From: Heptranchias perlo
Taxonomy: Eukaryota
Direction of reading: 5' to 3'
DNA: 64,000 bases
Assembly: GCF_035084215.1 (NCBI RefSeq)
Contig: NW_027138796.1
Location: 372,001 to 436,000, forward strand
Shown here: positions 1,561-62,657 of the stretch, one piece after another
How the letters are laid out: every line of letters starts with the position of its first letter
How positions within the stretch are numbered: the stretch's first letter is position 1
Notes under the pieces: generated by a model
The model's database searches: none
What the model was told of the DNA's origin: nothing
The model's input: the letters and a program-made list of their open reading frames with translations, nothing else
Translations under genes and position numbers: made by a program

Positions 1561-3411
1561 TTCTTAAATATAATTTGTAAGATAAATGTGAAATTAAGTT
1601 AAACTCTTTTTATGTTCTAAATTAATGTCATTTTGTAAAATAAATATGATTTAAAGTTAAACTCTTTTTACTTTCTAAATGAATAAATCTTATTCTTCCT
1701 CCTCCGCCTTTCTGTCCAGCGCGGAAGAATCGACGGCCACCTCTTCGTAATCCTTCTCGAGTGAGGCCAGGTCCTCCCGTGCGTCCTGGAACTCCCCTTC
1801 CTCCAGCCCCTCCCCCACGTACCAGTGGACAAAGGCCCGCTTGGCGTACATCTTATCGAATTTGAGGTTGAGGCGGGTCCAAGCCAAGGAAATGGCGGTG
1901 GTGTTGCTCAGCATACAGAGGGCACGCTGCACCTTTGCCAGATCGCCCCCTGGCACCACCGTCGGGGGCTGGTAGTTGATGCCAACCTGTGGGAAAAGAA
2001 AATTCTTTAGATTTCAGTTGCACAGAAAGGAGCTTCAAAATCAGAGCCGTTGGGAACCACTTAACTATCAGAAAGATAAATTAATGTACCAATGTGTGTC
2101 TATCACTGTACAAAAACCCAGATCTGGTTATTCAGTGGGCTCTTCCCCCAGTTTTAGAGCCTCAGTTTCTGATGGATGGATGCTGTGTAATGAGGCCAGA
2201 TTCCGGGGCTAATTCCTTTCTTCAGTTCATCTTGTCCAATGAGGCCTTGATTTTTCAGGATGCCTTTTCCTTGTTCAAGCAAGGACTTCTCCTGGAACAT
2301 TCAGGGCAAAAATCAAGGATCAGAGCTGAGACAATTCCACCAACAGCCTCAGAGGGAGCTCCTCTTTGGGCCAAGAATGGGGAGGGTCTGAAAGGAGCGA
2401 CAGCTTTTGACCCAGACTGAACAGACGTATTGTTCACGTGGGATATGAGATTGTCAGAATCCATGTTTCCCCAGAGCCCCATGGATTGAACACAAAATCC
2501 ACACTTCCCTTGAACCCGGTCGGGCACCAATCAACAAACTGGATCGAGCGCTTGGTTTTGATGGTGGCGATGGAGGCGTTGACATTCTTTGGCACGACAT
2601 CTCCTCGGTACAGCATGCAGCACGCCATGTACTTGCCCTGGCGGGGGTCGCACTTCACCATCTGATTGGCTGGTTCAAAGCAGGCGTTGGTGATCTCTGA
2701 CACAGATATTTGCTCGTGGTAAGCCTTCTCGGCCGAAATAAGGGGGGAGTAGGTTAATAATGGGAAGTGAATGCGGGGATAAGGGACCAGGTTGGTTTGG
2801 AACTCAGTCAGGTCCACATTGAGGGCACCGTCGAACCGTAGTGACGCCGTGATGGATGACACCAACTGTCCAATGAGACGGTTGAGGTTGGTGTATGTTG
2901 GACGCTCAATGTCAAGATTACGCCGACATATATCATAAAGGGCCTCGTTGTCGACCATGAAGCCGCAGTCAGAGTGCTCAAGGGTGGAGTGGGTGACGAG
3001 CACGGAGTTGTACGGTTCGACCACCGCAGTGGAAATCTGCGGCGCAGGATAAACAGAAAACTCCAGTTTGGATTTCTTGCCGTAGTCTACAGATAGTCTC
3101 TCCATCAGGAGGGATGTAAAACCCGAGCCGGTCCCACCCCCGAAACTGTGGAAAATGAGGAAACCCTGGAGTCCCGTGCACTGGTCAGCCTGTGGGCAAA
3201 GAAGGTACAAAACATTAAAAGGGAGCAGGAAATGGAATCTATCGTCAAAGGACAGTGAACACAGGACAGGAGCAAAAATACTGACCGTCCCTGGTGGGAC
3301 AGGGCAGTGGGAGCTGGTGAGAAGGGGCAGTGGGAGATGGGGAGAAGGGAGAGCGGGAGATGGTGAGAAGGGGCAGCGGGAGCTGTTGGGACTAGACAGT
3401 GGGAGATGGTG

Positions 3412-3687
3412 AACATAGGAACAGGAGTAGGCCATTCAGCCCCTCATGCCTGCTCCGCCATTTGATAAGATCATGGCTGATCTGTTATCTAGCTGCATAT
3501 ACCCGCCTTTGGCCCATATCTCTTAATACCTTTGGTTGCCAAAAAGCTATCCATCTCACATTTAAATGTAGCAATTGAGCTAGTATCAATTGCCGTTTGC
3601 GGAAGAGAGTTCCAAACTTCTACCACCCTTTGTGTAGAAATGATATCCCTTGCAAGTTTCTTTTCATACTCTCTTTTTGTAGCTCTT
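3412..3687 (-). mobile_element. CR1 LINE in intron 3 of copy 1, internally deleted
   Basis: Same two ends as the 1.88-kb intronic CR1 of copies 2-4, with about 1.6 kb removed at 3641-3642. Confidence 0.85.
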
Positions 3688-4465
3688 GTGAGAAGGGGCA
3701 GTGGTAGCTGCTGGGATGGGGCAGTGGGAGATGATAGGATGGGTCAGCGGGAGATGCTGGGAATGGGCAGGGGGAGTTGATTGTAATGGTCAGGGGGAGA
3801 TGATGGGACTGGGCAGTGGGAGATGATGTGATGGGTCAGTGGGAGACGATGGGAGAGACAGTGGGAGATAATGAGATGGGGCAGTGGGAGATGATGGGAT
3901 GGGTCAGTGGGAGATGTTGGGAATGGGCAGGGGGTGTTGATGGGAATGGGCAGGGGGAGATGATGTGATGGGTCAGTGGGAGACGATGGGAGAGACAGTG
4001 GGAGATATTGAGATGGGGCAGTGGGAGATGATGGGATTTGTCAGTGTTGGGAATGTTGGGAATGGGGAGGGCGAGCTGATGGGAATGGGCAGGGGGAGAT
4101 GATGGGACGGGGCAGTGGTAGACTGTGGGACTGGGCAGTGGGAGACTGTGGGAATGGGCATTGGGAGACTGTGGGACTGGGCAGTGCGAGATTATGTGAC
4201 GGAGCAGTGGAAGACTGTGGGACTGGGCAGTGGGAGATGGTGGGACGTGGCAGTGGGAGATGATGGGATGGGGCAATGAGAAATGATGAGACGGGGCAGC
4301 GGGAGATGATGGGACGGGGTAGTGGGAGATGGTGAGAAGGAGCAATGGGAGATGATGGAGGGGTAGTGGGAGATGGTGAGAAGGAGCAGTGGTTGCCGGT
4401 TCGATTAGGCAGTGGGAGATGATGGAGGGGTAGTGGGAGATGGTGAGAGGGGGCAGTGGTTGCCA
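3688..4465. repeat. Intron-3 purine-rich minisatellite, GGCAGTGGGAGATG core (also 17066-18373, 31387-32649, 45899-46848)
   Basis: 22-23-bp units with higher-order blocks; length differs among copies. Confidence 0.9.
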
Positions 4466-4912
4466 GTACACAACTTACCACCTTCCGTATGCGATCCAAG
4501 ACCAGATCCACTATCTCCTTGCCGATGGAACAGTGGCCCCGTGCGTAGTTATTGGCCGCATCCTCCTTGCCGGTGATGAGTTGCTCGGGGTGAAAGAGCT
4601 GTCGGTAGGTGCCGGTGCGGACCTCATCTGGGGGCAGGGAACGGAGAGTTAAAAACCTGAATATGCATCATTTCAAGTATTTTGATACAAGTCTGGCCAT
4701 TTTTCTGGGAACATCTCTCAGTCCTGGGACCACCACCTTTGATCCAGACTGGAAATCCCTGACTGTCCACAGTGACTGGAGTATTGGAGATTGGGAGGAG
4801 AGGGGGAGAGACGATTGGCCAAGCAGCTTCAACTGTCGAGATCTCATGACCAACCCAGCAGCTGGAAGCAGCAAACCAGGAGGATGCCAGGAGCATGAAG
4901 GCCGTGTTCTGC

Positions 4913-5135
4913 TGTCTCAGTTGGTAGCTGGTGCGACAAATTGATCATAGGAGTCGCAGGTTCCATTTGTGGCCTGTGCTGGGTCAGCTGATCTCAGCTA
5001 AGGTGGATATGAGCCCTGATATTAACCTCAGGACCCTGGGTGGGGGGTGGGACAGTAAACAATCCACCTGGGTACCTGCTGCTGTTCCTTACCCAATAAC
5101 TGCACCTGGCAAATGAGTGTATGTGGGGGATGGGG
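4913..5135 (+). mobile_element. Possible degenerate tRNA-derived SINE in intron 2 (also in copies 2-4)
   Basis: A-box-like TGTCTCAGTTGG and B-box-like GGTTCCAT at tRNA-like spacing; boundaries uncertain. Confidence 0.3.
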
Positions 5136-6509
5136 TTAAGGTGGGGACAGTACTGAGCTCAGCTGTGATGGTGCCTGTGGTTGAATTGCTTGCAGGGACT
5201 CAATGTTTGGCCTAATACTTGAAAGAATTGGTGAAGCACCGGAGAGACACGTGGGCCAGTGGAACCAGATTCTGGTAACGGGAAACACCTTCGGGGGAGG
5301 AGGGGAGATACTTGGAGGGGCCAAGACTTGGTCTGTGAGAAGGGAGTTTGTATCAAACAGCAACAAGAGGTAGCAGAACAGTGCCTGTCTGTATCAGGAG
5401 GAAGGACTGTACATGAGTAGGTGTATTGCAATGAGTTTAGTGACACACGACTAACCCATCAACAATCTCTCCCCTTACCGATCACAGTGGGCTCCAGATC
5501 TACAACCACGGCTCGGGGGATGTGCTTGCCCGCCCCCGTCTCACTGAAGAAGGTGTTGAAGGAGTCGTCCCCACCTCCGATGGTCTTGTCACTGGGCATC
5601 TGCCCATCTGGTTGGATCCCATGCTCCAGGCAATACAGCTCCCAGCAAGCATTGCCGACCTGCACGCCGGCCTGGCCAATGTGGATTGAAAGACACTCAC
5701 GCTAAAGAGTGGAGAACACAGGATTATTTACACAGGTAGGAGGACAATGCTTTATACAGTCAGTGGAGGTGGAAGGGAGAAGGGTGTGTGGGCAGCAACA
5801 CGTTCCATTACAGTAACCTGTGGATCCCGTCCATTCCCTGTAGATCTCACCTGCTGCCTGCTGGATCCCTTCTGTCCCCGTGCTATGTTCCACTACCTGT
5901 CGACCCCACCCCCTTCCGATGGACCCCTCTGCTCACGATGGATGTCTTCTCTCCGTGTGCGTTCCCACTCCCTATGGACTCCCTCTCTTCCTCTGGATCC
6001 CCCATTTTCTGTGGTTTCCCACGCCCTGTGTATTGCAGTGCTTCCTGTACATTCCCACTCCCTGTGGACTGCCCTGTCCCAGAGGATTTGCCCACTGACT
6101 GTGGATCCATTGCTCAATGTGGGCCACTCGCTTCCTGAGGAATTCCCCATATTTCTTAAAGATCCCACATTCTGTCACTGACCACCCTCGTTTGCTGTGG
6201 ATATGCATCACCCTGTGGATTCCCAATCTCCCTGTTACTCCTCTCTCCAGATGAATTTCCCACTTTCTCCCTGTGGCTGCCCCGAATCTCCCTGTGGATG
6301 CCCCCAGTCTCCCTGTGGTTCACTCCTCACTCTCTTTTCTGAAGCCCCTCCTCTCAACATCGGTTACTGCTCTCCCTGTCGTTCTTCCTCTCTCCATGTG
6401 GATCCTTCTCTCCCTGTGGATTCCCACCCTCCCTGTGGGTCCTTTCCCTCTCCCTTGGGATGCATTACTCTGACTGGTTCCCTTCTCTCTCCCGACAGAT
6501 TCCCACTCT

Positions 6510-6960
6510 CCTAGTGGATCACACTCTCTCAGTGGATCCCACTCTCTCTGGATCCCTTCTCTCCCTGTCAGATTCCCACTCTCCCAGTGGATCCCCCCTC
6601 CCAGTAGTTCCCTCTCTCCCAGTGGACCGCTCTCTTTCTATGGGTCCCACTCTCCCTGTGAATCCCTCTCCCAGTGGATCCCTCTCTCCTAGTGGATCCC
6701 TCTCTTCCTATGGATCCCACTCTCCCTGTGGATCCCTTCTCTCTCCCAGTCGATCCCACTCTCCCTGTGAATTCCACTCTCCTCGTAGATCCCACTCTCC
6801 CTGTGGATCCCTCTCTCCCAGTAGATCCCACTCTCCCTGTGGATCCCTCTCTCCCAGTGGATCCCACTCTCCCTGTGAATCCCTCTCTCCCTGTGGATCC
6901 CACTCTCCCTGTGAATCCCTCTCTCCCAGTGGATCCCCCTCTCCCTGTGGATCCCTCTGT
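6510..6960. repeat. Intron-1 18/36-bp minisatellite GGATCCCACTCTCCCTGT (also about 20330-20520, 34605-34797, 48805-49105)
   Basis: Copy 4 intron 1 is 108 bp (6x18) longer than in copies 2 and 3. Confidence 0.9.
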
Positions 6961-7064
6961 CTCGGTGGAACACCCTCGCTCTGTGCATTGCCCAGTGAGC
7001 TCTCACCATAATCTCCTCCTATTCTCGCAGCTCTTGAGAATGTGCCTCGTGCTGCCGCTCCCGC

Positions 7065-11878: not shown

Positions 11879-12022
11879 CACATCTTCCAGTTCTGACAAA
11901 AGGCCATTGACCTGAAAGGTTAACTCTGTTTCTTTCTCCACAGATGCTGCCTGACCTGCTGAGTAATTCCAGCATTTTCTGTTTTTATTTCAGATTCCAG
12001 CGTCTGCAGTATTTTGCTTTTG

Positions 12023-12649
12023 ATTCAGTGTTTTAATGACTGAAGTGCTGTGTGACTGCAGCTCTGTGGAGTTTGATTAAGCCCCATTCTGGGTCCATTG
12101 ATCCTCTTTCAAGTTCTAACGTCTTTTTTTACACGTGTTTCTCAATCTCTTGTCATGTATTTGTGGCTTTTAAATCGACACAATTCCAAAATCATTCAAA
12201 AATATTTATTTTCTTAAATATAATTTGTAAGATAAATGTGAAATTAAGTTAAACTCTTTTTATGTTCTAAATTAATGTCATTCTTTAGATTTCAGTTGCA
12301 CAGAAAGGAGCTTCCAAATCAGAGCCGTTGTGAACCACTCAACTATCAGAAAGATAAATTAATGTACCAATGTGTGTCTATCACTGTACAAAAACCCAGA
12401 TCTGGTTATTCACTGGCTCTTCCCCCAGTTTTAGAGCCTCAGTTTCTGATGGATGGATGCTGTGTAATGAGGCCAGATTCCGGGGCTAATTCCTTTCTTC
12501 AGTTCATCTTGTCCAATGAGGCCTTGATTTTTCAGGATGCCTTTTCCTTGTTCAAGCAAGGACTTCTCCTGGAACATTCAGGGCAAAAATCAAGGATCAG
12601 AGCTGAGACAATTCCACCAACAGCCTCAGAGGGAGATCCTCTTTGGGCC
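12023..12649 (-). pseudogene. Deleted remnant of another alpha-tubulin copy (3' flank/3'UTR fused to intron 4; no coding exon left)
   Basis: 11879-12282 duplicates 1229-1632, then joins the equivalent of 2005 (exon-5 CDS removed) and follows copy-1-type intron 4 to the equivalent of 2372, where it fuses to a CR1 3' end. Confidence 0.8.
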
Positions 12650-13477: not shown

Positions 13478-16400
13478 TTATTCTTCCTCCTCCGCCTTTC
13501 TGTCCAGCGCAGAAGAATCGACGGCCACCTCTTCGTAATCCTTCTCGAGTGAGGCCAGGTCCTCCCGTGCGTCCTGGAACTCCCCTTCCTCCAGCCCCTC
13601 CCCCACGTACCAGTGGACAAAGGCCCGCTTGGCGTACATCTTATCGAATTTGAGGTTGAGGCGGGTCCAAGCCAAGGAAATGGCGGTGGTGTTGCTCAGC
13701 ATACAGAGGGCACGCTGCACCTTTGCCAGATCGCCCCCTGGCACCACCGTCGGGGGCTGGTAGTTGATGCCAACCTGTGGGAAAAGAAAATTCTTCAGAT
13801 TTCAGTTGCACAGAAAGGAGCTTCAAAATCAGAGCTGTTGGGAACCACGTAACGATCAGAAAGATAAATTTTTGAATCAGTGTGTGTCTTTGTACAAGAA
13901 CCCAGCTCTGGTTATTCACTGGGCTCTTCCCCCAGTTTTCGAGCCTCAGTTTCTGATGGATGGATGCTGTGTAATGAGGCCAGATTCCGGGGCTAATTCC
14001 TTTCTTTAGTTCATCTTTTCCAATGAGGCCTTGATTTTTCAGGAAGCCTTTTCCTTGTTCGAGCAAGGACTTCTCCTTGGACATTCAGGGCAAAAATCAA
14101 TGATTAGAGCCTCAGAGGGAGCTATTGTTTGGGCCAGGAATGGGGGACAGCTTTTGACCCAGACTGAACAGACGTATTGTTCACGTGGGATATGAGATTG
14201 TCAGAATCCATGTTTCCCCAGAGCCCCATGGATTGAACACAAAACCCACACTTACCTTGAACCCGGTCGGGCACCAATCAACAAACTGGATCGAGCGCTT
14301 GGTTTTGATGGTGGCGATGGAGGCGTTGACATCCTTTGGCACGACATCTCCTCGGTACAGCATGCAGCACGCCATGTACTTGCCCTGGCGGGGGTCGCAC
14401 TTCACCATCTGATTGGCTGGTTCAAAGCAGGCGTTGGTGATCTCTGACACAGATATTTGCTCGTGGTAAGCCTTCTCGGCCGAAATAAGGGGGGAGTAGG
14501 TTAATAATGGGAAGTGAATGCGGGGATAAGGGACCAGGTTGGTTTGGAACTCAGTCAGGTCCACATTGAGGGCACCGTCGAACCGTAGTGACGCCGTGAT
14601 GGATGACACCAACTGTCCAATGAGACGGTTGAGGTTGGTGTATGTTGGACGCTCAATGTCAAGATTACGCCGACATATATCATAAAGGGCCTCGTTGTCG
14701 ACCATGAAGCCGCAGTCAGAGTGCTCAAGGGTGGAGTGGGTGACGAGCACGGAGTTGTACGGTTCGACCACCGCAGTGGAAATCTGCGGCGCAGGATAAA
14801 CAGAAAACTCCAGTTTGGATTTCTTGCCGTAGTCTACAGATAGTCTCTCCATCAGGAGGGATGTAAAACCCGAGCCGGTCCCACCCCCGAAACTGTGGAA
14901 AATGAGGAAACCCTGGAGTCCCGTGCACTGGTCAGCCTGTGGGCAAAGAAGGTACAAAACATTAAAAGGGAGCAGGAAATGGAATCTATCGTCAAAGGAC
15001 AGTGAACACAGGACAGGAGCAAAAATACTGACCGTCCCTGGTGGGACAGGGCAGTGGGAGCTGGTGAGAAGGGGCAGTGGGAGATGGGGAGAAGGGAGAG
15101 TGGGAGATGGTGAGAAGGGGCAGTGGGAGCTGGTGAGAAGGGGCAGCGGGAGCTGTTGGGACTAGACAGTGGGAGATGGTGAACATAGGAACAGGAGTAG
15201 GCCATTCAGCCCCTCATGCCTGCTCCGCCATTTGATAAGATCATGGCTGATCTGTTATCTAGCTGCATATACCCGCCTTTGGCCCATATCTCTTAATACC
15301 TTTGGTTGCCAAAAAGCTATCCATCTCACATTTAAATGTAGCAATTGAGCTAGTATCAATTGCCGTTTGCGGAAGAGAGTTCCAAACTTCTACCACCCTT
15401 TGTGTGTGTAGAAATGTTTTCTAATCTCACTCCTGAAAGGTCTGGCTCTAATCTTAAGACTGTGCCCCCTGCTCCTAGAATCCCCAACCAATGGAAATAG
15501 TTTCTCTCTATCCGTTCCCCTTAATATCTTATAAACTTCGATCAGATCACCCCTTAACCTTCTGAACTCCAGAGAATACAACCCCAATTTGCGTAATCTG
15601 TCCTCGTAACTTAATCCTTGAAGTCTGGGTATCATTCTGGGAAACCTACGCTGCGCTCCCTCCAAGGCCAATATGTCCTTCCGAAGGTGTGGTGCCCAGA
15701 ACTGCTCACAGTACTCCATGTGCGGTCTAACCAGGGTTTTGTATATCTGCAGCATAACTTCTGCCCCCTTGCACTCCAGTCCTCTAGATATAAAGGCCAG
15801 CATTCCATTAGCCTTATTGATTATTTTCTGCACCTGTTCATGACACTTCAATGATCGATGTACCTGAACCCCGAAGTCCCTTTGGACATCCACTGTTTTT
15901 AATGTTTTACCATTTAGAAAGTACCCTGTTCTATCCTTTTTTGATCCAAAGTGGATGACCTCACATTTGTCTATATTGAATTCCATTTGCCACAATTTTG
16001 CCCATTCACCTAATCTATCAATATCCCTTTGTAATTTTATGTTTTCATCTTCACTGCTTACAATGCCACCAATCTTTGTGTCATCGGCAAACTTAGATAT
16101 GAGACTTTCTATGCCTTCATCTAAGTCGTTAATAAATATTGTGAATAATTGAGGCCCCAAGACAGATCCCTGCGGGACTCCACTGGTCACATCCTGCCAA
16201 TGTGAATACTTACCCATTATCCCTACTCTCTGTCGCCTTTCGCTCCGCCAATTTCCTAACCAAGTCCGTACTTTTCCCTCGATTCCATGGGCTTCTAACT
16301 TAGCTAACAGTCTCTTATGTGGGACCTTATCAAATGCCTTCTGGAAGTCCATATAAATAATATCCATTGATATTCCCCTGTCCACGACTTTAGTCACTTC

Positions 16401-19400
16401 TTCAAAAAATTCAATCAGGTTTGTCAGGCACGACCTACCTTTCACAAATCTATGCTGGCTCTCCCTGATTAACTGAAAATTCTCAAGGTGTTCAGTCACC
16501 CTATCCTTAATTATAGACTCCAGCAATTTCCCCACAACAGATGTTAGGCTAACTGGTCTATCATTCCCCGGTTTCCCTCTCTCTCCTTTCTTAAAAAGCG
16601 GAGTGACGTGCAATTTTCCAATCTAGAGGGACAGTTCCTGAATCTAGAGAACTTTGAAAGATTATAGTTAGGGCATTTGCAATCTGCTCACCTACTTCCT
16701 TTAAAACCCTGGGATGGAAACCATCTGGTCCTGGGGATTTGTCAATCTTTAGTGCTATTATTTTCTTCATTACTGTTGCTTTACTTATGTTAATTTTATC
16801 GAGTCCCTGTCCCCGATTCAATATTAGTTTTGTTGGGATTTCCAGCATGCTATCCTCTTTTTCTACTGTAAATACTGACGCAAAGTAATTATTCAACATG
16901 TCCGCCAGTTCCCCATTGTCAATGACAATATCCCCACTTTCAGTTTTTAAGGGGCCAAACCTGCTCCTGACCACCCTCTTTTTCCTAATATAACTATAAA
17001 AGTTCTTCGTATTGGTTTTGATATCCCTTGCAAGTTTCTTTTCATACTCTCTTTTTGTAGCTCTTGTGAGAAGGGGCAGTGGTAGCTGCTGGGATGGGGC
17101 AGTGGGAGATGATGGGATGGGTCAGCGGGAGATGCTGGGAATGGGCAGGGGGAGTTGATTGGAATGGTCAGGGGGAGATGATGGGACTGGGCAGTGGGAG
17201 ATGATGTGATGGGTCAGTGGGAGACGATGGGAGAGACAGTGGGAGATAATGAGATGGGGCAGTGGGAGATGATGGGATGGGTCAGTTGGAGATGTTGGGA
17301 ATGGGCAGGGGGTGTTGATGGGAATGGGCAGGGGGAGATGATGTGATGGGTCAGTGGGAGACGATGGGAGAGACAGTGGGAGATATTGAGATGGGGCAGT
17401 GGGAGATGATGGGATTTGTCAGTGTTGGGAATGGGGAGGGCGAGCTGATGGGAATGGGCAGGGGGAGATGATGGGACGGGGCAGTGGTAGACTGTGGGAC
17501 TGGGCAGTGGGAGACTGTGGGAATGGGCATTGGGAGACTGTGGGACTGGGCAGTGCGAGATTATGTGACGGAGCAGTGGAAGACTGTGGGACTGGGCAGT
17601 GGGAGATGGTGGGACGGGGCAGTGGGAGATGATGGGATGGGGCAATGAGAAATGATGAGACGGGGCAGCGGGAGATGATGGGACGGGGTAGTGGGAGATG
17701 GTGAGAAGGAGCAATGGGAGATGATGGGAGAGGTTGTGGGAGATGGTGAGAAGGAGCAGTGGTTGCCGGTTCAATTAGGCAGTGGGAGATGATGGAGGGG
17801 TAGTGGGAGATGGTGAGAGGGGGCAGTGGGAGATGATGGGAGAGGTTGTGGGAGATGGTGAGAAGGAGCAGTGGGAGATGGTGAGAAGGAGCAGTGGGAG
17901 ATGGTGAGAAGGAGCAGTGGTTGCCGGTTCGATTAGGCAGTGGGAGATGATGGAGGGGTAGTGGGAGATGGTGAGAAGGAGCAGTGGGAGATGATGGGAG
18001 AGGTTGTGGGAGATGGTGAGAAGGAGCAGTGGGAGATGGTGAGAAGGAGCAGTGGTTGCCGGTTCGATTAGGCAGTGGGAGATGATGGAGGGGTAGTGGG
18101 AGATGGTGAGAGGGGGCAGTGGGAGATGATGGAGGGGTAGTGGGAGATGGTGAGAGGGGGCAGTGGTTGCCGGTTCGATTAGGCAGTGGGAGATGATGGA
18201 GGGGTAGTGGGAGATGGTGAGAGGGGGCAGTGGTTGCCGGTTCGATTAGGCAGTGGGAGATGATGGAGGGGTAGTGGGAGATGGTGAGAAGGAGCAGTGG
18301 TTGCCGGTTCGATTAGGCAGTGGGAGATGATGGAGGGGTAGTGGGAGATGGTGAGAGGGGGCAGTGGTTGCCAGTACACAACTTACCACCTTCCGTATGC
18401 GATCCAAGACCAGATCCACTATCTCCTTGCCGATGGAACAGTGGCCCCGTGCGTAGTTATTGGCCGCATCCTCCTTGCCGGTGATGAGTTGCTCGGGGTG
18501 AAAGAGCTGTCGGTAGGTGCCGGTGCGGACCTCATCTGGGGGCAGGGAACGGAGAGTTAAAAACCTGAATATGCATCATTTCAAGTATTTTGATACAAGT
18601 CTGGCCATTTTTCTGGGAACATCTCTCAGTCCTGGGACCACCACCTTTGATCCAGACTGGAAATCCCTGACTGTCCACAGTGACTGGAGTATTGGAGATT
18701 GGGAGGTGAGGGGGAGAGACGATTGGCCAAGCAGCTTCAACTGTCGAGATCTCATGACCAACCCAGCAGCTGGAAGCAGCAAACCAGGAGGATGCCAGGA
18801 GCATGAAGGCCGTGTTCTGCTGTCTCAGTTGGTAGCTGGTGCGACAAATTGATCAGAGGAGTCGCAGGTTCCATTTGTGGCCTGTGCTGGGTCAGCTGAT
18901 CTCAGCTAAGGTGGATATGAGCCCTGATATTAACCTCAGGACCCTGGGTGGGGGGTGGGACAGTAAACAATCCACCTGGGTACCTGCTGCTGTTCCTTAC
19001 CCAATAACTGCACCTGGCAAATGAGTGTATGTGGGGGATGGGGTTAAGGTGGGGACAGTACTGAGCTCACCTGTGATGGTGCCTGTGGTTGAATTGCTTG
19101 CAGGGACTCAATGTTTGGCCTAATACTTGAAAGAATTGGTGAAGCACCGGAGAGACACGTGGGCCAGTGGAACCAGATTCTGGTAACGGGAAACACCTTC
19201 GGGGGAGGAGGGGAGATACTTGGAGGGGCCAAGACTTGGTCTGTGAGAAGGGAGTTTGTATCAAACAGCAACAAGAGGTAGCAGAACAGTGCCTGTCTGT
19301 ATCAGGAGGAAGGACTGTACATGAGTAGGTGTATTGCAATGAGTTTAGTGACACACGACTAACCCATCAACAATCTCTCCCCTTACCGATCACAGTGGGC

Positions 19401-20573
19401 TCCAGATCTACAAACACGGCTCGGGGGATGTGCTTGCCCGCCCCCGTCTCACTGAAGAAGGTGTTGAAGGAGTCGTCCCCACCTCCGACGGTCTTGTCAC
19501 TGGGCATCTGCCCATCTGGTTGGATCCCATGCTCCAGGCAATACAGCTCCCAGCAAGCATTGCCGACCTGCACGCCGGCCTGGCCAATGTGGATTGAAAG
19601 ACACTCACGCTAAAGAGTGGAGAACACAGGATTATTTACACAGGTAGGAGGACAATGCTTTATACAGTCAGTGGAGGTGGAAGGGAGAAGGGTGTGTGGG
19701 CAGCAACACGTTCCATTACAGTAACCTGTGGATCCCGTCCATTCCCTGTAGATCTCACCTGCTGCCTGCTGGATCCCTTCTGTCCCTGTGCAACGTTCCA
19801 CTACCTGTCGACCCCACCCCCTTCCGATGGACCCCTCTGCTCACGATGGATGTCTTCTCTCCGTGTGCGTTCCCACTCCCTGTGGACTGCCCTGTCCCAG
19901 AGGATTTGCCCACTGACTGTGGATCCATTGCTCAATGTGGGCCACTCACTTCCTGAGGAATTCCCCATATTTCTTAAAGATCCCACATTCTGCCATTGAC
20001 CACCCTCGTTTGCTGTGGATATGCATCACCCTGTGGATTCCCAATCTCCCTGTGACTCCTCTCTCCAGATGGATTTCCCACTTTCTCCGTGTGGCTGCCC
20101 CGAATCTCCCTGTGGATGCCCCCAGTCTCCCTGTGGTTCACTCCTCACTCTCTTTTCTGAAGCCCCTTCTCTCAACATCGATTACTGCTCTCCCTGTCGT
20201 TCTTCCTCTCTCCATGTGGATCCTTCTCTCCCTGTGGATTCCCACCCTCCCTGTGGGTCCTTTCCCTCTCCCTTGGGATGCATTACTCTGACTGGTTCCC
20301 TTCTCTCTCCCGACAGATTCCCACTCTCCCAGTGCATCACACTCTCTCAGTGGATCCCACTCTCCCTGTGGATCTACTCTCCCAGTAGATCCCACTCTCC
20401 CTTTGAATTCCTCTCTCCCAGTAGATCCCACTCTCCCTGTGAATCCCTCTCTCCCAGTAGATCCCACTCTCCCTGTGAATCCCTCTCTCCCAGTGGATCC
20501 CCCTCTCCCTGTGGATCCCTCTGTCTCGGTGGAACACCCTCGCTCTGTGCATTGCCCAGTGAGCTCTCACCAT
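13478..20573 (-). CDS. TUBA: Alpha-tubulin copy 2 (450 aa, 5 coding exons)
   Basis: Exons 20573-20571, 19609-19387, 18535-18387, 14936-14256, 13774-13478; all introns GT-AG. MRECLSIH start, K40, [15 protein letters not shown] (E254), ends [13 protein letters not shown]. Residue 42 is Val. Confidence 0.95.
15182..17065 (-). mobile_element. 5'-truncated CR1 LINE (RT and 3' end) in intron 3 of copy 2
   Basis: ORFs 15390-16613 and 16591-16974: [29 protein letters not shown]; inserted in the intronic minisatellite with a possible GTGA duplication. Confidence 0.92.
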
Positions 20574-27798: not shown

Positions 27799-34849
<7,051 letters not shown>

Positions 34850-35023: not shown

Positions 35024-35107
35024 TTCATTGTGTAAAAGGCGGAACCAAGAATTCGCAACATTCTTTTATGGGAGGAGCGCCAGGGAACAAGAGAATTCCC
35101 CTTACCC

Positions 35108-45300: not shown

Positions 45301-48300
45301 ATTAACTGAAAATTCTCAAGGTGTTCAGTCACCCTATCCTTAATTATAGACTCCAGCAATTTCCCCACAACAGATGTTAGGCTAACTGGTCTATCATTCC
45401 CCGGTTTCCCTCTCTCTCCTTTCTTAAAAAGCGGAGTGACGTGCAATTTTCCAATCTAGAGGGACAGTTCCTGAATCTAGAGAACTTTGAAAGATTATAG
45501 TTAGGGCATTTGCAATCTGCTCACCTACTTCCTTTAAAACCCTGGGATGGAAACCATCTGGTCCTGGGGATTTGTCAATCTTTAGTGCTATTATTTTCTT
45601 CATTACTGTTGCTTTACTTATGTTAATTTTATCGAGTCCCTGTCCCCGATTCAATATTAGTTTTGTTGGGATTTCCAGCATGCTATCCTCTTTTTCTACT
45701 GTAAATACTGACGCAAAGTAATTATTCAACATGTCCGCCAGTTCCCCATTGTCAATGACAATATCCCCACTTTCAGTTTTTAAGGGGCCAAACCTGCTCC
45801 TGACCACCCTCTTTTTCCTAATATAACTATAAAAGTTCTTCGTATTGGTTTTGATATCCCTTGCAAGTTTCTTTTCATACTCTCTTTTTGTAGCTCTTGT
45901 GAGAAGGGGCAGTGGTAGCTGCTGGGATGGGGCAGTGGGAGATGATGGGATGGGTCAGCGGGAGATGCTGGGAATGGGCAGGGGGAGTTGATTGGAATGG
46001 TCAGGGGGAGATGATGGGACTGGGCAGTGGGAGATGATGTGATGGGTCAGTGGGAGACGATGGGAGAGACAGTGGGAGATAATGAGATGGGGCAGTGGGA
46101 GATGATGGGATGGGTCAGTGGGAGATGTTGGGAATGGGCAGGGGGTGTTGATGGGAATGGGCAGGGGGAGATGATGTGATGGGTCAGTGGGAGACGATGG
46201 GAGAGACAGTGGGAGATATTGAGATGGGGCAGTGGGAGATGATGGGATTTGTCAGTGTTGGGAATGGGGAGGGCGAGCTGATGGGAATGGGCAGGGGGAG
46301 ATGATGGGACGGGGCAGTGGTAGACTGTGGGACTGGGCAGTGGGAGACTGTGGGAATGGGCATTGGGAGACTGTGGGACTGGGCAGTGCGAGATTATGTG
46401 ACGGAGCAGTGGAAGACTGTGGGACTGGGCAGTGGGAGATGGTGGGACGGGGCAGTGGGAGATGATGGGATGGGGCAATGAGAAATGATGAGACGGGGCA
46501 GCGGGAGATGATGGGACGGGGTAGTGGGAGATGGTGAGAAGGAGCAGTGGTTGCCGGTTCAATTAGGCAGTGGGAGATGATGGAGGGGTAGTGGGAGATG
46601 GTGAGAAGGAGCAGTGGGAGATGATGGGAGAGGTAGTGGGAGATGGTGAGAAGGAGCAGTGGGAGATGGTGAGAAGGAGCAGTGGTTGCCGGTTCGATTA
46701 GGCAGTGGGAGATGATGGAGGGGTAGTGGGAGATGGTGAGAAGGAGCAGTGGGAGATGGTGAGAGGGGGCAGTGGTTGCCGGTTCGATTAGGCAGTGGGA
46801 GATGATGGAGGGGTAGTGGGAGATGGTGAGAGGGGGCAGTGGTTGCCAGTACACAACTTACCACCTTCCGTATGCGATCCAAGACCAGATCCACTATCTC
46901 CTTGCCGATGGAACAGTGGCCCCGTGCGTAGTTATTGGCCGCATCCTCCTTGCCGGTGATGAGTTGCTCGGGGTGAAAGAGCTGTCGGTAGGTGCCGGTG
47001 CGGACCTCATCTGGGGGCAGGGAACGGAGAGTTAAAAACCTGAATATGCATCATTTCAAGTATTTTGATACAAGTCTGGCCATTTTTCTGGGAACATCTC
47101 TCAGTCCTGGGACCACCACCTTTGATCCAGACTGGAAATCCCTGACTGTCCACAGTGACTGGAGTATTGGAGATTGGGAGGAGAGGGGGAGAGACGATTG
47201 GCCAAGCAGCTTCAACTGTCGAGATCTCATGACCAACCCAGCAGCTGGAAGCAGCAAACCAGGAGGATGCCAGGAGCATGAAGGCCGTGTTCTGCTGTCT
47301 CAGTTGGTAGCTGGTGCGACAAATTGATCAGAGGAGTCGCAGGTTCCATTTGTGGCCTGTGCTGGGTCAGCTGATCTCAGCTAAGGTGGATATGAGCCCT
47401 GATATTAACCTCAGGACCCTGGGTGGGGGGTGGGACAGTAAACAATCCACCTGGGTACCTGCTGCTGTTCCTTACCCAATAACTGCACCTGGCAAATGAG
47501 TGTATGTGGGGGATGGGGTTAAGGTGGGGACAGTACTGAGCTCAGCTGTGATGGTGCCTGTGGTTGAATTGCTTGCAGGGACTCAATGTTTGGCCTAATA
47601 CTTGAAAGAATTGGTGAAGCACCGGAGAGACACGTGGGCCAGTGGAACCAGATTCTGGTAACGGGAAACACCTTCGGGGGAGGAGGGGAGATACTTGGAG
47701 GGGCCAAGACTTGGTCTGTGAGAAGGGAGTTTGTATCAAACAGCAACAAGAGGTAGCAGAACAGTGCCTGTCTGTATCAGGAGGAAGGACTGTACATGAG
47801 TAGGTGTATTGCAATGAGTTTAGTGACACACGACTAACCCATCAACAATCTCTCCCCTTACCGATCACAGTGGGCTCCAGATCTACAAACACGGCTCGGG
47901 GGATGTGCTTGCCCGCCCCCGTCTCACTGAAGAAGGTGTTGAAGGAGTCGTCCCCACCTCCGACGGTCTTGTCACTGGGCATCTGCCCATCTGGTTGGAT
48001 CCCATGCTCCAGGCAATACAGCTCCCAGCAAGCATTGCCGACCTGCACGCCGGCCTGGCCAATGTGGATTGAAAGACACTCACGCTAAAGAGTGGAGAAC
48101 ACAGGATTATTTACACAGGTAGGAGGACAATGCTTTATACAGTCAGTGGAGGTGGAAGGGAGAAGGGTGTGTGGGCAGCAACACGTTCCATTACAGTAAC
48201 CTGTGGATCCCGTCCATTCCCTGTAGATCTCACCTGCTGCCTGCTGGATCCCTTCTGTCCCTGTGCAACGTTCCACTACCTGTAGACCCCACCCCCTTCC

Positions 48301-49156
48301 GATGGACCCCTCTGCTCACGATGGATGTCTTCTCTCCGTGTGCGTTCCCACTCCCTGTGGACTGCCCTGTCCCAGAGGATTTGCCCACTGACTGTGGATC
48401 CATTGCTCAATGTGGGCCACTCACTTCCTGAGGAATTCCCCATATTTCTTAAAGATCCCACATTCTGCCATTGACCACCCTCGTTTGCTGTGGATATGCA
48501 TCACCCTGTGGATTCCCAATCTCCCTGTGACTCCTCTCTCCAGATGGATTTCCCACTTTCTCCGTGTGGCTGCCCCGAATCTCCCTGTGGATGCCCCCAG
48601 TCTCCCTGTGGTTCACTCCTCACTCTCTTTTCTGAAGCCCCTTCTCTCAACATCGATTACTGCTCTCCCTGTCGTTCTTCCTCTCTCCATGTGGATCCTT
48701 CTCTCCCTGTGGATTCCCACCCTCCCTGTGGGTCCTTTCCCTCTCCCTTGGGATGCATTACTCTGACTGGTTCCCTTCTCTCTCCCGACAGATTCCCACT
48801 CTCCCAGTGCATCACACTCTCTCAGTAGATCCCACTCTCCCTGTGGATCTACTCTCCCAGTAGATCCCACTCTCCCTTTGAATTCCTCTCTCCCAGTAGA
48901 TCCCACTCTCCCTTTGAATTCCTCTCTCCCAGTGGATCCCACTCTCCCTGTGGATCCCTCTCTCCCAGTAGATCCCACTCTCCCTGTGAATCCCTCTCTC
49001 CCAGTGGATCCCCCTCTCCCTGTGGATCCCTCTCTCCCAGTGGATCCCACTCTCCCTGTGAATCCCTCTCTCCCAGTGGATCCCCCTCTCCCTGTGGATC
49101 CCTCTGTCTCGGTGGAACACCCTCGCTCTGTACATTGCCCAGTGAGCTCTCACCAT
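42336..49156 (-). CDS. TUBA: Alpha-tubulin copy 4 (450 aa, 5 coding exons)
   Basis: Exons 49156-49154, 48084-47862, 47010-46862, 43794-43114, 42632-42336; GT-AG introns; intact frame. Residue 42 is Val. Confidence 0.95.
44017..45898 (-). mobile_element. 5'-truncated CR1 LINE in intron 3 of copy 4
   Basis: Same insertion; RT ORF 44076-45446 (456 aa) is uninterrupted to its end here. Confidence 0.92.
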
Positions 49157-55726: not shown

Positions 55727-56526
55727 ACCCCCATCAATCAAGCCCCTTCAATCAGACCCCACTTCTCTCAGTCCCCATCAATCAGATCCCCAACAATCAG
55801 ACCCCATCAATCAGACCGGTGTGAGGACAACACAGTGTGCTGAGAGTTCGGTAAGTGTGGGAGTTGAAGGGTTAATCTCCTTAAATCTAGTGCATATTGC
55901 TTCAACTGTTTAAGGTCAATTTAAAAGTTTAAATTTCTAAGTTTCTGTCAGGCTTCAGCAGAGAGCTGCTGTAGCAAGTTAATTGGTTAGCTAGATTCAA
56001 TTTGGTACCTGAAGGTGGGGCAGGCCTGACTCATCTGAGTCTCAACTGTAGAAATACAGGGGCCTGTCAGTGCGGACAGCACGGTGTGAGGACAACACAG
56101 TGTGCTGAGAGTTCGGTAAGTGTGGGAGTTTGGTGAAGTGGGGGAAGGAGGTGCTGCTTTGCCTTGCTTTTCCTGCAGAGCGGTAGTGGACCTGAGAGTA
56201 GAAGACTGAGATTGTGGAATAAAAGCAGCAGCAGACCTGCACCAAGAGACCACTACTGTGCGACATCACAGGGACTTAACTCCTGGACCTAAGATAAATA
56301 AGAAGCAAAAAGTAATCCAAGTGGGACGTCACCAAGGAAGAGGTAAGTGATTGGCTGGTGAGTATTTTCCTGCTGAATTTGTCTAAGGTTAGAGTTTGTG
56401 GATTCTCTGGTCTCTGTTGTGTAGTGGGGGACTGCTGTTCAGCAAGGGCCCTTGAGTATACCTTTTTAATTGAAGTGAAATTGGTGGGATTCATTTAATT
56501 TGAATTAATTAGTTAAAGGGTAAGTC

Positions 56527-57477
56527 ATGTCAGGACAGCCCAGCCCCGTGTTATGCTCTTCCTGCTCCATGTGGGAAATCAGGGACCCTTCCGGTGTCCC
56601 TGACGACCATGTGTGCGGGAAATGTATCCAGCTGCAGCTACTGACAAACCGCATTGTGGCACTGGAGCTGCGGATGGATTCATTATGGAGCATTCACGAT
56701 GCTGAGAACGTCGTGGATAGCACGTTTAGTGAGATGGTCACACCGCAGGTAAAGGTTGTACAGGCAGGAAGTAATTGGGTGACCACCAGGCAGAGTAAGA
56801 AGAGCAGGCAGGCAGTGCAGGGGTCCCCTGTGGCTGTTCCCCTCTCAAACAAATATACCGCTTTGGATATTGTTGAGGGGGATGACTTATCAGGGGTAGG
56901 CAGCAGCAGCCAACTTCCTGGCACCAGGGGTAGCTCTGCTGCACAGGCTGGGAGGAAAAAGAGTGGAAGAGCTATAGTGGTAGGGGATTCTATCGTAAGG
57001 GGAACAGACAGGCGTTTCTGTGGCCGTAAACGTGACTCCAGGATGGTTTGTTGCCTCCCTGGTGCCAGGGTCATGAATGTCACTGAGCGGCTACAGGGCA
57101 TTCTCAAGGGGGAGGGTGAGCAGGCAGAGGTCGTGGTCCACATTGGGACCAACGACATAGGTAGGAAGGGAGATGAGGTCCTGCATCAAGAATTTAGGGA
57201 GCTAGGTAGCAGATTAAAGGGCAGGACCTCAAAGGTTGTAATCTCTGGATTACTCCCGGTGCCACGGGCTAGTGAGTATAGAAATAGGAGGATAGAACAG
57301 ATGAATGCGTGGCTAAAGAGTTGGTGCAGGAGGGAGGGTTTCAGTTTCCTGGATCACTGGGCCTGCTTCTGGGGAAGGTGGGACTTGTACAAGTCGGACG
57401 GGTTGCACCTGAACCAGAGCGGGACAAATATCCTTGCGGGGAGGTTTGCTAGCACTGTTGGGGGGGGTTTAAACTAA
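56527..57477 (+). CDS. CR1 ORF1p: zinc finger, coiled coil and SGNH esterase (316 aa, intact)
   Basis: CSSC..CGKC, heptad region, GDSI, HIGTND and DGLH blocks. Confidence 0.9.
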   Translation: MSGQPSPVLCSSCSMWEIRDPSGVPDDHVCGKCIQLQLLTNRIVALELRMDSLWSIHDAENVVDSTFSEMVTPQVKVVQAGSNWVTTRQSKKSRQAVQGSPVAVPLSNKYTALDIVEGDDLSGVGSSSQLPGTRGSSAAQAGRKKSGRAIVVGDSIVRGTDRRFCGRKRDSRMVCCLPGARVMNVTERLQGILKGEGEQAEVVVHIGTNDIGRKGDEVLHQEFRELGSRLKGRTSKVVISGLLPVPRASEYRNRRIEQMNAWLKSWCRREGFSFLDHWACFWGRWDLYKSDGLHLNQSGTNILAGRFASTVGGGLN

Positions 57478-60394
57478 CTTGGCAGGGGGATGGGATACAG
57501 AGTGGAGCTACAATAGGGGGTGATGTGCAGCCAAATATAGAGAAAAAAACAAGTCAGCTTGGAAGACAGGGCAAATATGTAAGGGCAAGGCTGGATGGCA
57601 TCTATTTTAATGCAAGGAGTCTTGCGAATAAGGTGGATGAACTGAAGGTGTTGATAAACACATGGGAGTATGATATTGTTGCTGTCACAGAGACATGGTT
57701 GAGGGAGGGGCAAGACCGGCAGCTCAATATTCCGGGGTACAGAATCTTCAGGCGAGACAGAGGGGGAGGTATAAGAGGAGGGGGGGTCGCAATATTAATT
57801 AAAGAATCAATTACTGCCATAAGAAGGGATGATATATTAGCAGGTTCCTCTAATGAGGCCATATGGGTGGAGCTTAAAAACAAAAAGGGGGCAAGCACTT
57901 TGATGGGAGTGTACAATAGGCCCCCAAACAGTCAGGGGGAGATCGAGGAACAGATATGTCGGCAAATCTCAGAAAATTGTGCAAATAATAGGGTAATAAT
58001 CGTGGGGGATTTCAACTTCCCCAATATTAACTGGGATACTCAGAATGTAAAAGGCTTAGAGGGTACAAAATTCTTAACGTGCATCCAGGAGAGCTTTTTG
58101 AGCCAGCATGTAGAAAGTCCTACAAGAGAGGGGGCGGTACTGGACCTAATTCTAGGGAATGTGGCCGGCCAAGTGGAAGAAGTGCTAGTAGGTGAGCACT
58201 TTGGTGACAGTGACCATAATTCGGTGAGATTTAAGGTGGTCATGGAAAAGGACAGGGAGGGGCCGGAAATAAAGGTTCTAAATTGGGGGAAGGCCGATTT
58301 TAATAGGATAAGGCAGGATCTGGCCAAAATGGACTGGGATCAGCTGCTTGTAGGAAAATCCGCATCGGAGCAATGGGAGTCTTTCAGAAGGGAGATTGAG
58401 ACCATACAATGGCAACATGTTCCCGTAAAGGTCAAGGGTGGTTCCAAGAACTCCAGGGAACCTTGGATGTCAGGGGATATACGAGAATGGATTAGGAAAA
58501 AAAGGAGGGCTTTTGGCAGATACAAAAGGCTAAAGACGGAGGAAGCCCTAGAGGAGTACAAAAAGTGCAGGGGGATACTTAAAAAAGAAATTAGGAGATC
58601 AAGGAGGGGCATTGAAATAACACTGGCGAGCAAAATAAAGGAAAATCCTAAGATGTTTTATAAGTATATTAAGGGTAAGAGGATGACTAGGGAAAAAATA
58701 GGGCCCATTAGGGACAAAAATGGCAATCTGTGTGTGGAGCCGGCAGATGTAGGAGGGGTTCTAAATGAATTTTTTGCATCTGTTTTCACTATGGAGAAGG
58801 ACGATGTAGACATAGAAATACGGCTGGGGGACTGTGATATACTCGAACATATTAACATCGAGCGGGAGGAGGTATTGGCGGTTTTAGCAGGCCTAAAAAT
58901 GGATAAATCCCCAGGCCCGGACGAAATGTATCCCAGGCTACTGTGTGAGGCAAAGGAGGAGATTGCGGGGGCTCTGACACATATATTCAGAACCTCTCTG
59001 GCCACAGGGGATGTGCCAGAGGACTGGAGAACCGCTAATGTAATACCATTATTCAAGAAGGGGAGTAGGGAAAAACCGGGGAACTACAGGCCAGTGAGCC
59101 TAACATCAGTGGTAGGAATATTATTGGAAAAAATTCTGAAGGACAAAATTAGTCTCCACTTGGAGAAGCAAGGATTAATCAGGGATAGTCAACATGGCTT
59201 TGTCAAGGGAAGATCATGTCTGACTAATTTGATTGAATTTTTTGAGGGGGTGACTAGGCGTGTGGATGAGGGTAACGCAGTGGATGTGGTATACATGGAT
59301 TTCAGTAAGGCCTTCGATAAAGTCCCCCACAGGAGACTGGTCAAGAAGGTACGAGCCCATGGAATCCAGGGTGCCTTGGCACTTTGGATACAAAACTGGC
59401 TTAGTGGCAGAAGGCAGAGGGTGATGGTCGAAGGTTGTTTTTGTGACTGGAAGCCTGTGGCCAGTGGGTACCACAGGGATCGGTGCTGGGTCCCTTGCTG
59501 TTTGTGGTCTACATTAATGACTTGGATATGAATGTAAAAGGTATGATCAGTAAGTTCGCTGATGATACAAAGATTGGTAGGGTGGTAAATAGTGAGGAGG
59601 ATAGCCTCAGTCTGCAGGACGATATAGATGGGTTGGTCAGATGGGCGGAACAGTGGCAAATGGAATTTAACCCGGAAAAGTGCGAGGTGATGCACTTTGG
59701 AGGGACTAACAAGGCAAGGGAATACACAATGAATGGGAGGACCCTAGGCAAGACAGAGGGTCAGAGGGATCTTGGTGTGCAAGTTCACAGATCCCTGAAG
59801 GCGGCGGAACAGGTAGATAAGGTGGTAAAGAAGGCATATGGGATACTTGCCTTTATTAGCCGAGGCATAGAATATAAGAGCAAGGAGGTTATGATGGAGC
59901 TATATAAAACACTGGTTAGGCCACAGCTGGAGTACTGTGTGCAGTTCTGGTCGCCACACTACAGGAAGGATGTGATCGCTTTGGAGAGGGTGCAGAGGAG
60001 ATTCACCAGGATGTTACCAGGGCTGGAGCGCTTCAGCTATGAAGAGAGACTGGGAAGATTGGGTTTGTTTTCCTTGGAGCAGAGGAGGCTGAGGGGGGAC
60101 ATGATTGAGGTGTACAAAATTATGAGGGGCACAGATAGGATGGATACTAAGGAGCTTTTTCCCTTCGTTGAGGGTTCCATAACAAGGGGACATAGATTCA
60201 AGGTAAAAGGCGGGAGGTTTAGAGGGGATTTGAGAAAGAACTTTTTCACCCAGAGGGTGGTTGGAGTCTGGAACTCACTGCCTGAAAGGGTTGTGGAGGC
60301 AGGAACCCTCACAACATTCAAGAAGCATTTGGATGAGCACTTGAAATGCCATAGCATACAAGGCTATGGACCAAATGCTGGAATATGGGATTAG
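57474..60394 (+). CDS. CR1 ORF2p: APE endonuclease and reverse transcriptase, one 1-bp frameshift
   Basis: ORFs 57525-59531 and 59483-60394 (YFNARS, TETW, GDFN, SDH, DFSKAFD, FADD). One G is missing in the run at 59466-59468 within SGVPQGS. Confidence 0.88.
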
Positions 60395-61198
60395 AGTAGA
60401 CAGGGCTGATGGCCGGCGCGGACACGATGGGCCGAAGGGCCTCTATCCGTGCTGTATGACTCTATGACTCTATGACTCTATGAATCAGACCCCATCGATC
60501 AGACCTTCATCAATCAGACCCCCATCAATCAGACCCCCATCGATCGGACCCCCATCGATTAGAGCCCCATCAGTCAGACCCCCATCAGTCAGACCCCCAA
60601 CAATCAGACCCCCATCGATCAGACCCCCATCAATCAGACCCCCATCAATCAGACCTTCATCAATCAGACCCCCATCCATCAGACCCCCATCGATTAGAGC
60701 CCCATCACTCAGACCCCATCAACCTGACCCCATCAATCAGATTCCAGTCAATCAGATTCCCATCTATCAGACCCCATTAATCAGACCCCATCGATCAGAC
60801 CCCCATCGGTCAGACCCCATCAATCTCACCCCATCAATCAGGCCCCAACCAACCTGACCCCATCAGTCAGACCCCATCTATCTGACTCCAATCGATCAGA
60901 CCCCATCCATTCTGGGTTCAGTGATCCTCTTCTAACTTCTAACGTCTTCTTTTACACGTGTTTCTCAATCCCTTGTCGTGTATTTGTGGCTTTTAAATTG
61001 ACACAATTTCAAAATCATTCAAAAATATTTATTTTCTTAAATATAATCTGTAACAACAATGTGAATTAAAGTCAAACCCCTTTTACTTTCTAAATAAATG
61101 CCATTTTGTAACATAAATGTGAAATTAAGTTAAACTTTTTACATTCTAAATTAATAAGTCATTTTGTAAACACTTTTTACTTTTTAAATGAATAAATC

Positions 61199-62657
61199 TT
61201 ATTCTTCCTCCTCCGCCTTTCTGTCCAGCGCAGAAGAATCGACGGCCACCTCTTCGTAATCCTTCTCGAGTGAGGCCAGGTCCTCCCGTGCGTCCTGGAA
61301 CTCCCCTTCCTCCAGCCCCTCCCCCACGTACCAGTGGACAAAGGCCCGCTTGGCGTACATCTTATCGAATTTGAGGTTGAGGCGGGTCCAAGCCAAGGAA
61401 ATGGCGGTGGTGTTGCTCAGCATACAGAGGGCACGCTGCACCTTTGCCAGATCGCCCCCTGGCACCACCGTCGGGGGCTGGTAGTTGATGCCAACCTGTG
61501 GGAAAAGAAAATTCTTCAGATTTCAGTTGCACAGAATGGAGCTTCAAAATCAGAGCTGTTGGGAACCACTTAACGATCAGAAAGATAAATTTTTGAATCA
61601 GTGTGTGTCTTTGTACAAGAACCCAGCTCTGGTTATTCACTGGGCTCTTCCCCCAGTTTTCGAGCCTCAGTTTCTGATGGATGGATGCTGTGCAATGAGG
61701 CCAGATTCCGGGGCTAATTCCTTTCTTTAGTTCATCTTTTCCAATGAGGCCTTGATTTTTCAGGAAGCCTTTTCCTTGTTCGAGCAAGGATTTCTCCTTG
61801 GACATTCAGGGCAAAAATCAATGATTAGAGCCTCAGAGGGAGCTATTGTTTGGGCCAGGAATGGGGGACAGCTTTTGACCCAGACTGAACAGACGTATTG
61901 TTCACGTGGGATATGAGATTGTCAGAATCCATGTTTCCCCAGAGCCCCATGGATTGAACACAAAACCCACACTTACCTTGAACCCGGTCGGGCACCAATC
62001 AACAAACTGGATCGAGCGCTTGGTTTTGATGGTGGCGATGGAGGCGTTGACATCCTTTGGCACGACATCTCCTCGGTACAGCATGCAGCACGCCATGTAC
62101 TTGCCCTGGCGGGGGTCGCACTTCACCATCTGATTGGCTGGTTCAAAGCAGGCGTTGGTGATCTCTGACACAGATATTTGCTCGTGGTAAGCCTTCTCGG
62201 CCGAAATAAGGGGGGAGTAGGTTAATAATGGGAAGTGAATGCGGGGATAAGGGACCAGGTTGGTTTGGAACTCAGTCAGGTCCACATTGAGGGCACCGTC
62301 GAACCGTAGTGACGCCGTGATGGATGACACCAACTGTCCAATGAGACGGTTGAGGTTGGTGTACGTTGGACGCTCAATGTCAAGGTTACGCCGACATATA
62401 TCATAAAGGGCCTCGTTGTCGACCATGAAGCCACAGTCAGAGTGCTCGAGGGTGCAGTGGGTGACGAGCACGGAGTTGTACGGTTCGACCACCGCAGTGG
62501 AAATCTGCGGCGCAGGGTAAATGGAAAACTCCAGTTTGGATTTCTTGCCGTAGTCGACAGATAGTCTCTCCATCAGGAGGGATGTAAAACCCGAGCCGGT
62601 CCCACCCCCGAAACTGTGGAAAATGAGGAAACCCTGGAGTCCCGTGCACTGGTCAGC
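61199..62657 (-). CDS. TUBA: Alpha-tubulin copy 5, exons 4-5 only (5' part beyond window)
   Basis: Exon 4 62657-61977 and exon 5 61495-61199, canonical splice sites; variant residues FSIY and THCT. Confidence 0.9.

Follow-up and report, generated by a model that had tools for sequence, protein, structure and literature searches.

A tandem array of divergent alpha-tubulin genes in the shark Heptranchias perlo, probably belonging to a shark, skate and ray variant with a changed surface and tail

The DNA analysed here is a stretch of 64,000 nucleotides from the shark Heptranchias perlo (NCBI RefSeq assembly GCF_035084215.1, contig NW_027138796.1, positions 372,001 to 436,000 of the forward strand; hereafter the window), and it carries a tandem array of one divergent alpha-tubulin gene. 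An earlier note on this DNA had described at least five head-to-tail copies and a remnant, with unit spacings of 11788, 14321, 14537 and 18863 bp. We find four complete genes of five exons and exons 4 and 5 of a fifth, and the same stop-to-stop spacings follow exactly from the five stop codons, located by self-BLAST at 1690, 13478, 27799, 42336 and 61199; all five exon-5 copies are on the minus strand. In copies 1 to 4 the exons measure 3, 223, 149, 681 and 297 nucleotides and encode 450 amino acids, with introns following codons 1, 125 and 352 and another interrupting codon 76. The units are of two types, A and B, arranged as follows.

1..993, no strand assigned: type-A spacer, matching 9474-10406
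1690..7009, minus strand: copy 1, type A, with exons at 7007-7009, 5479-5701, 4479-4627, 2509-3189 and 1690-1986
11879..12649, minus strand: type-A remnant, in which 3' flank is joined to part of intron 4 and exon 5 has been lost
13478..20573, minus strand: copy 2, type B, intact, introns all GT-AG, carrying I42V
27799..34849, minus strand: copy 3, type B, intact
42336..49156, minus strand: copy 4, type B, intact, with the same coding sequence as copy 2
61199..62657, minus strand: copy 5, exons 4 and 5 only, with the window edge falling in intron 3
62364..62556, minus strand: conversion-like tract in exon 4 of copy 5 (codons 159-223), with clustered differences

The remnant is present as the earlier note had it, but it consists of 3' flank and intron 4 and holds no coding DNA. 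The expectation that the array runs past both ends of the window agrees with what lies there. The right end falls inside copy 5, in the minisatellite of its intron 3, and at the left end bases 203-993 are 98% identical to the spacer upstream of copy 1 (9620-10406), so that a further gene copy is probably located to the left. There are no flanking genes within the window.

The array is a mosaic and not the outcome of one uniform burst. Copies 2 to 5 have a common intron 4, 3' flank and spacer with a CR1-type LINE (long interspersed nuclear element), and copies 2 to 4 are 99.75-99.94% identical to one another: copies 2 and 3 differ by 6 substitutions in 10,673 unique bases, and copy 4 differs from each of them by 27 in 10,669. 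Type A, represented by copy 1 and the remnant, has a different spacer and departs from type B at 28 of 481 bases in intron 4 and 29 of 255 in the 3' flank, so that the near-identity of introns, promoters and LINEs claimed earlier is true of copies 2 to 4 and fails for copy 1. Exon 5 differs between the two types at a single base of 297, where about 5 synonymous differences are expected (P = 0.03), and its flanks differ by 6-11%.

As read from the assembly, copy 1 is likely defective. The donor of its intron 4 is GG instead of GT, reading through the intron stops the frame after 75 nucleotides, and the copy also has F67V and D327N, at residues conserved as F67 in 95 and D327 in 92 of 105 aligned rows. 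None of these lesions was seen in DNA sequencing run X1, a result that neither confirms nor refutes them. The remnant is joined at about 12648 to the end of a type-B spacer LINE, and its structure would fit what a deletion or an unequal crossover leaves behind. Copy 5 differs from copy 3 at 15 positions, nine of them within 193 bases (P = 0.00025 in 200,000 shuffles), and seven of these nine are synonymous. At the epaulette-shark mutation rate of 7e-10 per generation (PMC10587355), and assuming no conversion, hand arithmetic turns the divergence of 0.06-0.25% among copies 2 to 4 into roughly 0.4-1.8 million generations; the word recent is therefore relative.

The encoded protein has the Pfam domains Tubulin and Tubulin_C, and its best solved relatives are alpha chains. 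It retains the catalytic residue E254 (present in 105 of 105 rows) together with other elements of recognised role, namely the glycine-rich loop, K40 and the N-terminal autoregulation tetrapeptide. The earlier description of a divergent and specialised-looking isotype is borne out by 39 differences from a TUBA1-type model over 437 residues.

Relatives were retrieved with exon 5 and two skate proteins as queries, the matches being representatives of 90%-identity clusters with at most 15 members listed per cluster. A signature motif occurs in 53 of the 411 retrieved proteins, all from 15 elasmobranch species (11 shark, 4 batoid), although a chimaera member could be hidden in the clusters, for example in the canonical cluster of 5,862 members. 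Exon 5 is 95-96% identical to models from bamboo, white and horn sharks and 85-91% identical to those from skates; rows from outside the elasmobranchs reach no more than 87% over the part that matched. A quick tree of 57 rows was built with poor or partial models left out, group labels taken from source names and tails, and support from the Shimodaira-Hasegawa-like approximate likelihood ratio test (SH-aLRT) only; in it, the 23 family rows form one clade (SH-aLRT 100, stem 0.081) apart from proteins named TUBA3, TUBA8 and TUBAL3-like. The window copies form a clade of their own (support 99), as expected of tandem arrays that evolve in concert. Copies in the array are more alike within than between species and copy 5 bears the conversion tract, yet turnover is mixed, with older sub-lineages persisting across skates.

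The family is multi-copy in skates and in other sharks. From the thorny skate (Amblyraja) 20 family models were retrieved, 14 of them on one 52.9-Mb sequence, and four models from Rhinoraja lie on one 17.4-Mb sequence. Since sub-lineages are common to several skate genera and the multi-copy state recurs elsewhere, amplification has been recurrent and is not confined to the window. The comparison thus suggests an old isotype, common to sharks and batoids, of which the present array would be one turn in a long birth-and-death process; the recent amplification or homogenisation proposed earlier holds for copies 2 to 4 and does not extend to the isotype. Shark and skate RefSeq/GenBank models such as XP_032885929.1, XP_067880357.1, XP_043541501.1 and XP_067833590.1 fall in the same clade with the same signature residues, and the closest are 92-96% identical to the window protein over aligned columns; unlike them, the window protein has a few private changes. 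They bear automatic and misleading mammalian names ('tubulin alpha chain-like', 'alpha-1C/1D/8 chain-like') and are not named as a family. No description of the family was found in the literature searched, which left most subscription papers outside, and in the databases it appears to stand under automatic names only.

Two further groups were noticed among the retrieved proteins. A fast-evolving sub-clade of the family spans sharks and a sawfish (P0094, P0111, P0116, P0143, P0145-P0147, P0224-P0230), with about one gene per species among those retrieved and basic substitutions near residues 35-45 and 280-340, the charge of the whole protein being -4 in P0116. Its horn-shark member has an exon-5 region 96% like that of the window, which suggests conversion at the level of the exon. 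A second, separate elasmobranch-only alpha-tubulin clade (P0186, P0231-P0244) belongs to a 26-member cluster with a short tail ending in tyrosine, and has SH-aLRT 100 for the rows tested.

What sets the family apart lies largely on the outer face and the tail of the protein. At twelve positions (108, 109, 188, 190, 193, 386, 389, 393, 397, 413, 420 and 427), at least 90% of 63 other alpha-tubulins share a conserved residue and at least 90% of the 38 family members compared depart from it. The window protein is changed at all 12, by Y108C, T109S, I188V, T190V, T193S, E386L, A389T, H393L, L397K, M413L, E420D and A427S. Five of these positions are among 39 residues in contact with tau R2, according to a simulation study (PMC10032563), or with VASH1 (PMC7449697), an enrichment with Fisher p = 0.002 (0.003 when only conserved sites serve as background). 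Residues 383-439, the region of helices 11 and 12 (H11-H12) to which VASH1 also binds (PMC7449697), contain seven of the 12 (p = 0.0002). The C-terminal region has a net charge of -9, compared with -14 to -16 in four reference isotypes. The tail of the window protein ends in four glutamates with no tyrosine, and none of the 38 family members has a terminal tyrosine or phenylalanine. The binding of CAP-Gly proteins depends on the terminal tyrosine. Adaptation to urea was considered as an explanation and set aside.

We consider it reasonably probable that the window holds an array of a shark, skate and ray alpha-tubulin variant whose altered surface and tail likely change partner binding, and whose copies turn over by unequal crossing-over and gene conversion. 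The product would polymerise and, from the moment it is made, resemble detyrosinated tubulin. Its changed outer surface and its tyrosine-less, less acidic tail would let motors, microtubule-associated proteins (MAPs) and tail-modifying enzymes bind microtubules differently, with basic MAPs, motors and CAP-Gly proteins attracted less strongly or in another manner. Copies would be gained, lost and re-homogenised in a birth-and-death turnover of a specialised isotype, a reading to which the broken copy 1, the exon-less remnant, the tract in copy 5 and the near-identical exon 5 all lead. Selection for several copies and a role specific to a cell type are both conjectural; male germ cells are our first guess for the latter, at somewhat less than even chances.

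Several observations weigh against this interpretation. The enrichment test was devised after the substitutions were known, and the tau contacts come from a simulation paper (PMC10032563). According to a preprint on human TUBA1A (bioRxiv 10.1101/2025.09.29.679168), microtubules are disrupted by H393D, and L397R was one of the variants impairing assembly that were simulated; substitutions here could thus do harm unless they are compensated. The homogenisation of exon 5 is weakly significant, at P = 0.03, or 0.10 on the intron rate alone, and copy number may drift without selection. Moreover, the spliced contig described next is a paralog and none of the window copies.

No sequencing run is listed as RNA; run X5 is guessed to be RNA from the same sample as X1 (DNA), X6 and X7. 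A contig of X5 skips exactly the 481-base intron 4, a joint that is not listed for X1. It differs from the window copies at 40 of 649 bases in exon 4 and at 5 of 316 from exon 5 onwards; these exon-4 differences together with another 3' end mark it as a paralog. Among the 36 differences listed between this paralog and copy 3, part of a longer listing with 58 further rows, 20 of the 33 changed codons are synonymous, and pN/pS, the ratio of nonsynonymous to synonymous differences per site, is about 0.19 over codons 195-337 for the rows listed. Judged from the spliced paralog, the family appears to be transcribed and to evolve under purifying selection. Among the contigs listed for X5-X7, no long one is identical to a window copy, which does not indicate silence, since variants can be lost from contigs and records resembling human sequence were filtered out. 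Run X1 holds both intron-4 types, and its exon-4 contig has two of the nine copy-5 tract alleles in a combination absent from the window, which may point to more copies or to another individual; X1 may be the source sample. The first 30 of at least 37 'tubulin alpha' rows in a bamboo-shark single-cell marker table (PMC11372145), 16 of them shark, could not be matched to family accessions, and a tissue-expression look-up in the supplements of PMC13188829 gave no match. Candidate sites of use, though not evidence, are the sperm of elasmobranchs, with their helical heads and accessory flagellar columns (PMC11856307), and the marginal bands of dogfish erythrocytes (PMC2112168).

The intron after codon 352 that the earlier note reported is seen in copies 1-4. 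TUBA3 and TUBA8 likewise have five exons and an intron after codon 352, a position that may be ancestral. They end in tyrosine or phenylalanine, an aromatic residue missing from the window protein and the family, keep E386, H393 and L397, and do not group with the family in the free trees, where it forms its own clade. An approximately unbiased (AU) test on a quick tree of 24 rows rejects none of the candidates for sister group, giving p = 0.64 for TUBA8, 0.54 for TUBA3, 0.62 for TUBA1 and 0.46 for TUBAL3-like proteins. TUBA4A, which we take to be encoded without a C-terminal tyrosine, as the pigeon model P0024 is, resembles the family in a tail that ends in glutamate as in detyrosinated tubulin, but has the canonical H11-H12 surface, a more acidic tail (-7 versus -3) and a separate branch. 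Primate TUBB8 and germline-restricted tubulins also offer a lineage-specific, divergent, multi-copy tubulin with pseudogenes, although TUBB8 is a beta-tubulin and is known to be expressed in oocytes. Several vertebrate clusters (human TUBA1A/B/C, mammalian Tub1D/E, sauropsid and frog; PMC4202323) show alpha-tubulin genes duplicated in tandem on particular branches, whereas the gene amplified in the present array differs at 12 near-invariant sites throughout its family; the words 'shark' and 'cartilaginous' do not occur in that paper's main text. A tandem array is thus an ordinary kind of structure, and the value of this one lies more in the old, surface-remodelled isotype.

The units contain further features, listed here with their equivalents in other units; UTR denotes an untranslated region.

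34850..35103, minus strand: putative promoter and 5' UTR, containing one TATA-like and two CCAAT-like boxes, identified by consensus matches only
7010-7263, 20574-20827 and 49157-49410, minus strand: the same promoter and 5' UTR, with 0-2 differences
35104..36236, no strand assigned: 29-bp minisatellite directly upstream of the promoter, also at 7264-9611, 20828-21699 and 49411-50427
37141..41536, plus strand: decayed CR1-type LINE of the type-B spacer, also at 22604-26999 and 51332-55725
55818..60482, plus strand: extra full-length CR1-type LINE, in one unit only, with an esterase-like open reading frame (ORF) 1
29504..31377, minus strand: LINE fragment with a reverse transcriptase domain in intron 3, also at 15183-17056 and 44018-45889

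The 29-bp minisatellite has 30-78 units, the number varying by copy. Next to each promoter it holds 25-70 copies of TGATTGAT, all on the gene strand; the window as a whole has 211 on the minus strand and none on the plus strand. This motif presumably resembles a PBX/HOX or CUX site and may be mere satellite. The spacing of 18863 bp is mostly due to the extra 4.7-kb LINE, a nearly intact element apart from ORF2 (endonuclease and reverse transcriptase), which is split into two overlapping frames. It is flanked by a 9-bp target-site duplication (55809-55817 and 60483-60491), has an 8-bp tail repeat and was inserted into a 15-bp satellite; the decayed spacer LINEs are 75-79% like it. Copy 1 has lost about 1.6 kb of the intron-3 fragment. 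Every copy has an AT-rich 58-bp tandem duplication in its 3' flank (1574-1684 and equivalents). The type-A spacer (203-993, 9620-11878) contains retroelement-like remnants, which may resemble a Penelope-type element; its ORFs have no Pfam match.

The family could be functional while the present array is silent or neutral, the satellites and LINEs driving unequal crossing-over and the working gene being a paralog elsewhere. In keeping with this, the sole long spliced contig observed comes from a paralog, with about 94% identity in exon 4, the window protein has A201G, I209L, A273S and L286I, which are mostly missing from the family, one of the four complete copies is broken and the units are full of minisatellites. 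Copies 2-4 nevertheless have open frames, GT-AG introns and intact putative promoter elements, and the differences both from the paralog (20 of 33 changed codons) and within the copy-5 tract (7 of 9) are mostly synonymous. We regard a silent array as rather unlikely.

The narrower view of the earlier note, in which a germline gene of TUBA3/TUBA8 type underwent a single recent amplification for dosage in this lineage, we judge improbable. The intron after codon 352, the differences of only 0.06-0.25% among copies 2-4 and the failure of the AU test to reject TUBA8 or TUBA3 as sister all accord with it; against it are the multi-copy state in skates and other sharks with sub-lineages common to several genera, the absence of the aromatic C-terminus of the TUBA3- and TUBA8-named proteins retrieved, and an age of roughly 0.4-1.8 million generations at the epaulette-shark rate without conversion (PMC10587355). 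Still more improbable, in our estimate, is an artefact in which the assembly over-expanded the array or set two alleles side by side as tandem copies, the likeliest candidates being copies 2 and 3. These two differ at only 6 of 10,673 unique bases and no contig among those listed spans even a 1.8-kb stretch, but their minisatellites differ in length (30 versus 39, 57 versus 55 and 26 versus 34 units), copies 1, 4 and 5 have private structural features, and X1 has both intron-4 types, though it may be the source sample.

The preferred reading, an array of an altered and still turning-over shark, skate and ray isotype, has a bolder form that we put forward as speculative and on balance unlikely: that elasmobranchs possess an alpha-tubulin class of their own, with a rebuilt MAP and motor face, a fixed tyrosine-less low-charge tail and repeatedly re-amplified arrays supplying one elasmobranch-specific microtubule structure, such as the machinery that shapes the helical sperm. 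If true, this would amount to a naturally occurring rewrite of the tubulin code among vertebrates. Helices H11-H12 hardly vary among vertebrate alpha-tubulins, and human microtubules are disrupted by changes at some of the sites concerned; a family that bears such changes, would predate the split of sharks and skates and exists in many copies would offer a ready test of the contributions of lattice surface and tail to MAP and motor binding. It would also suggest that cartilaginous fishes have a specialised cell structure, and the current automatic gene names would be hiding a distinct class of alpha-tubulin.

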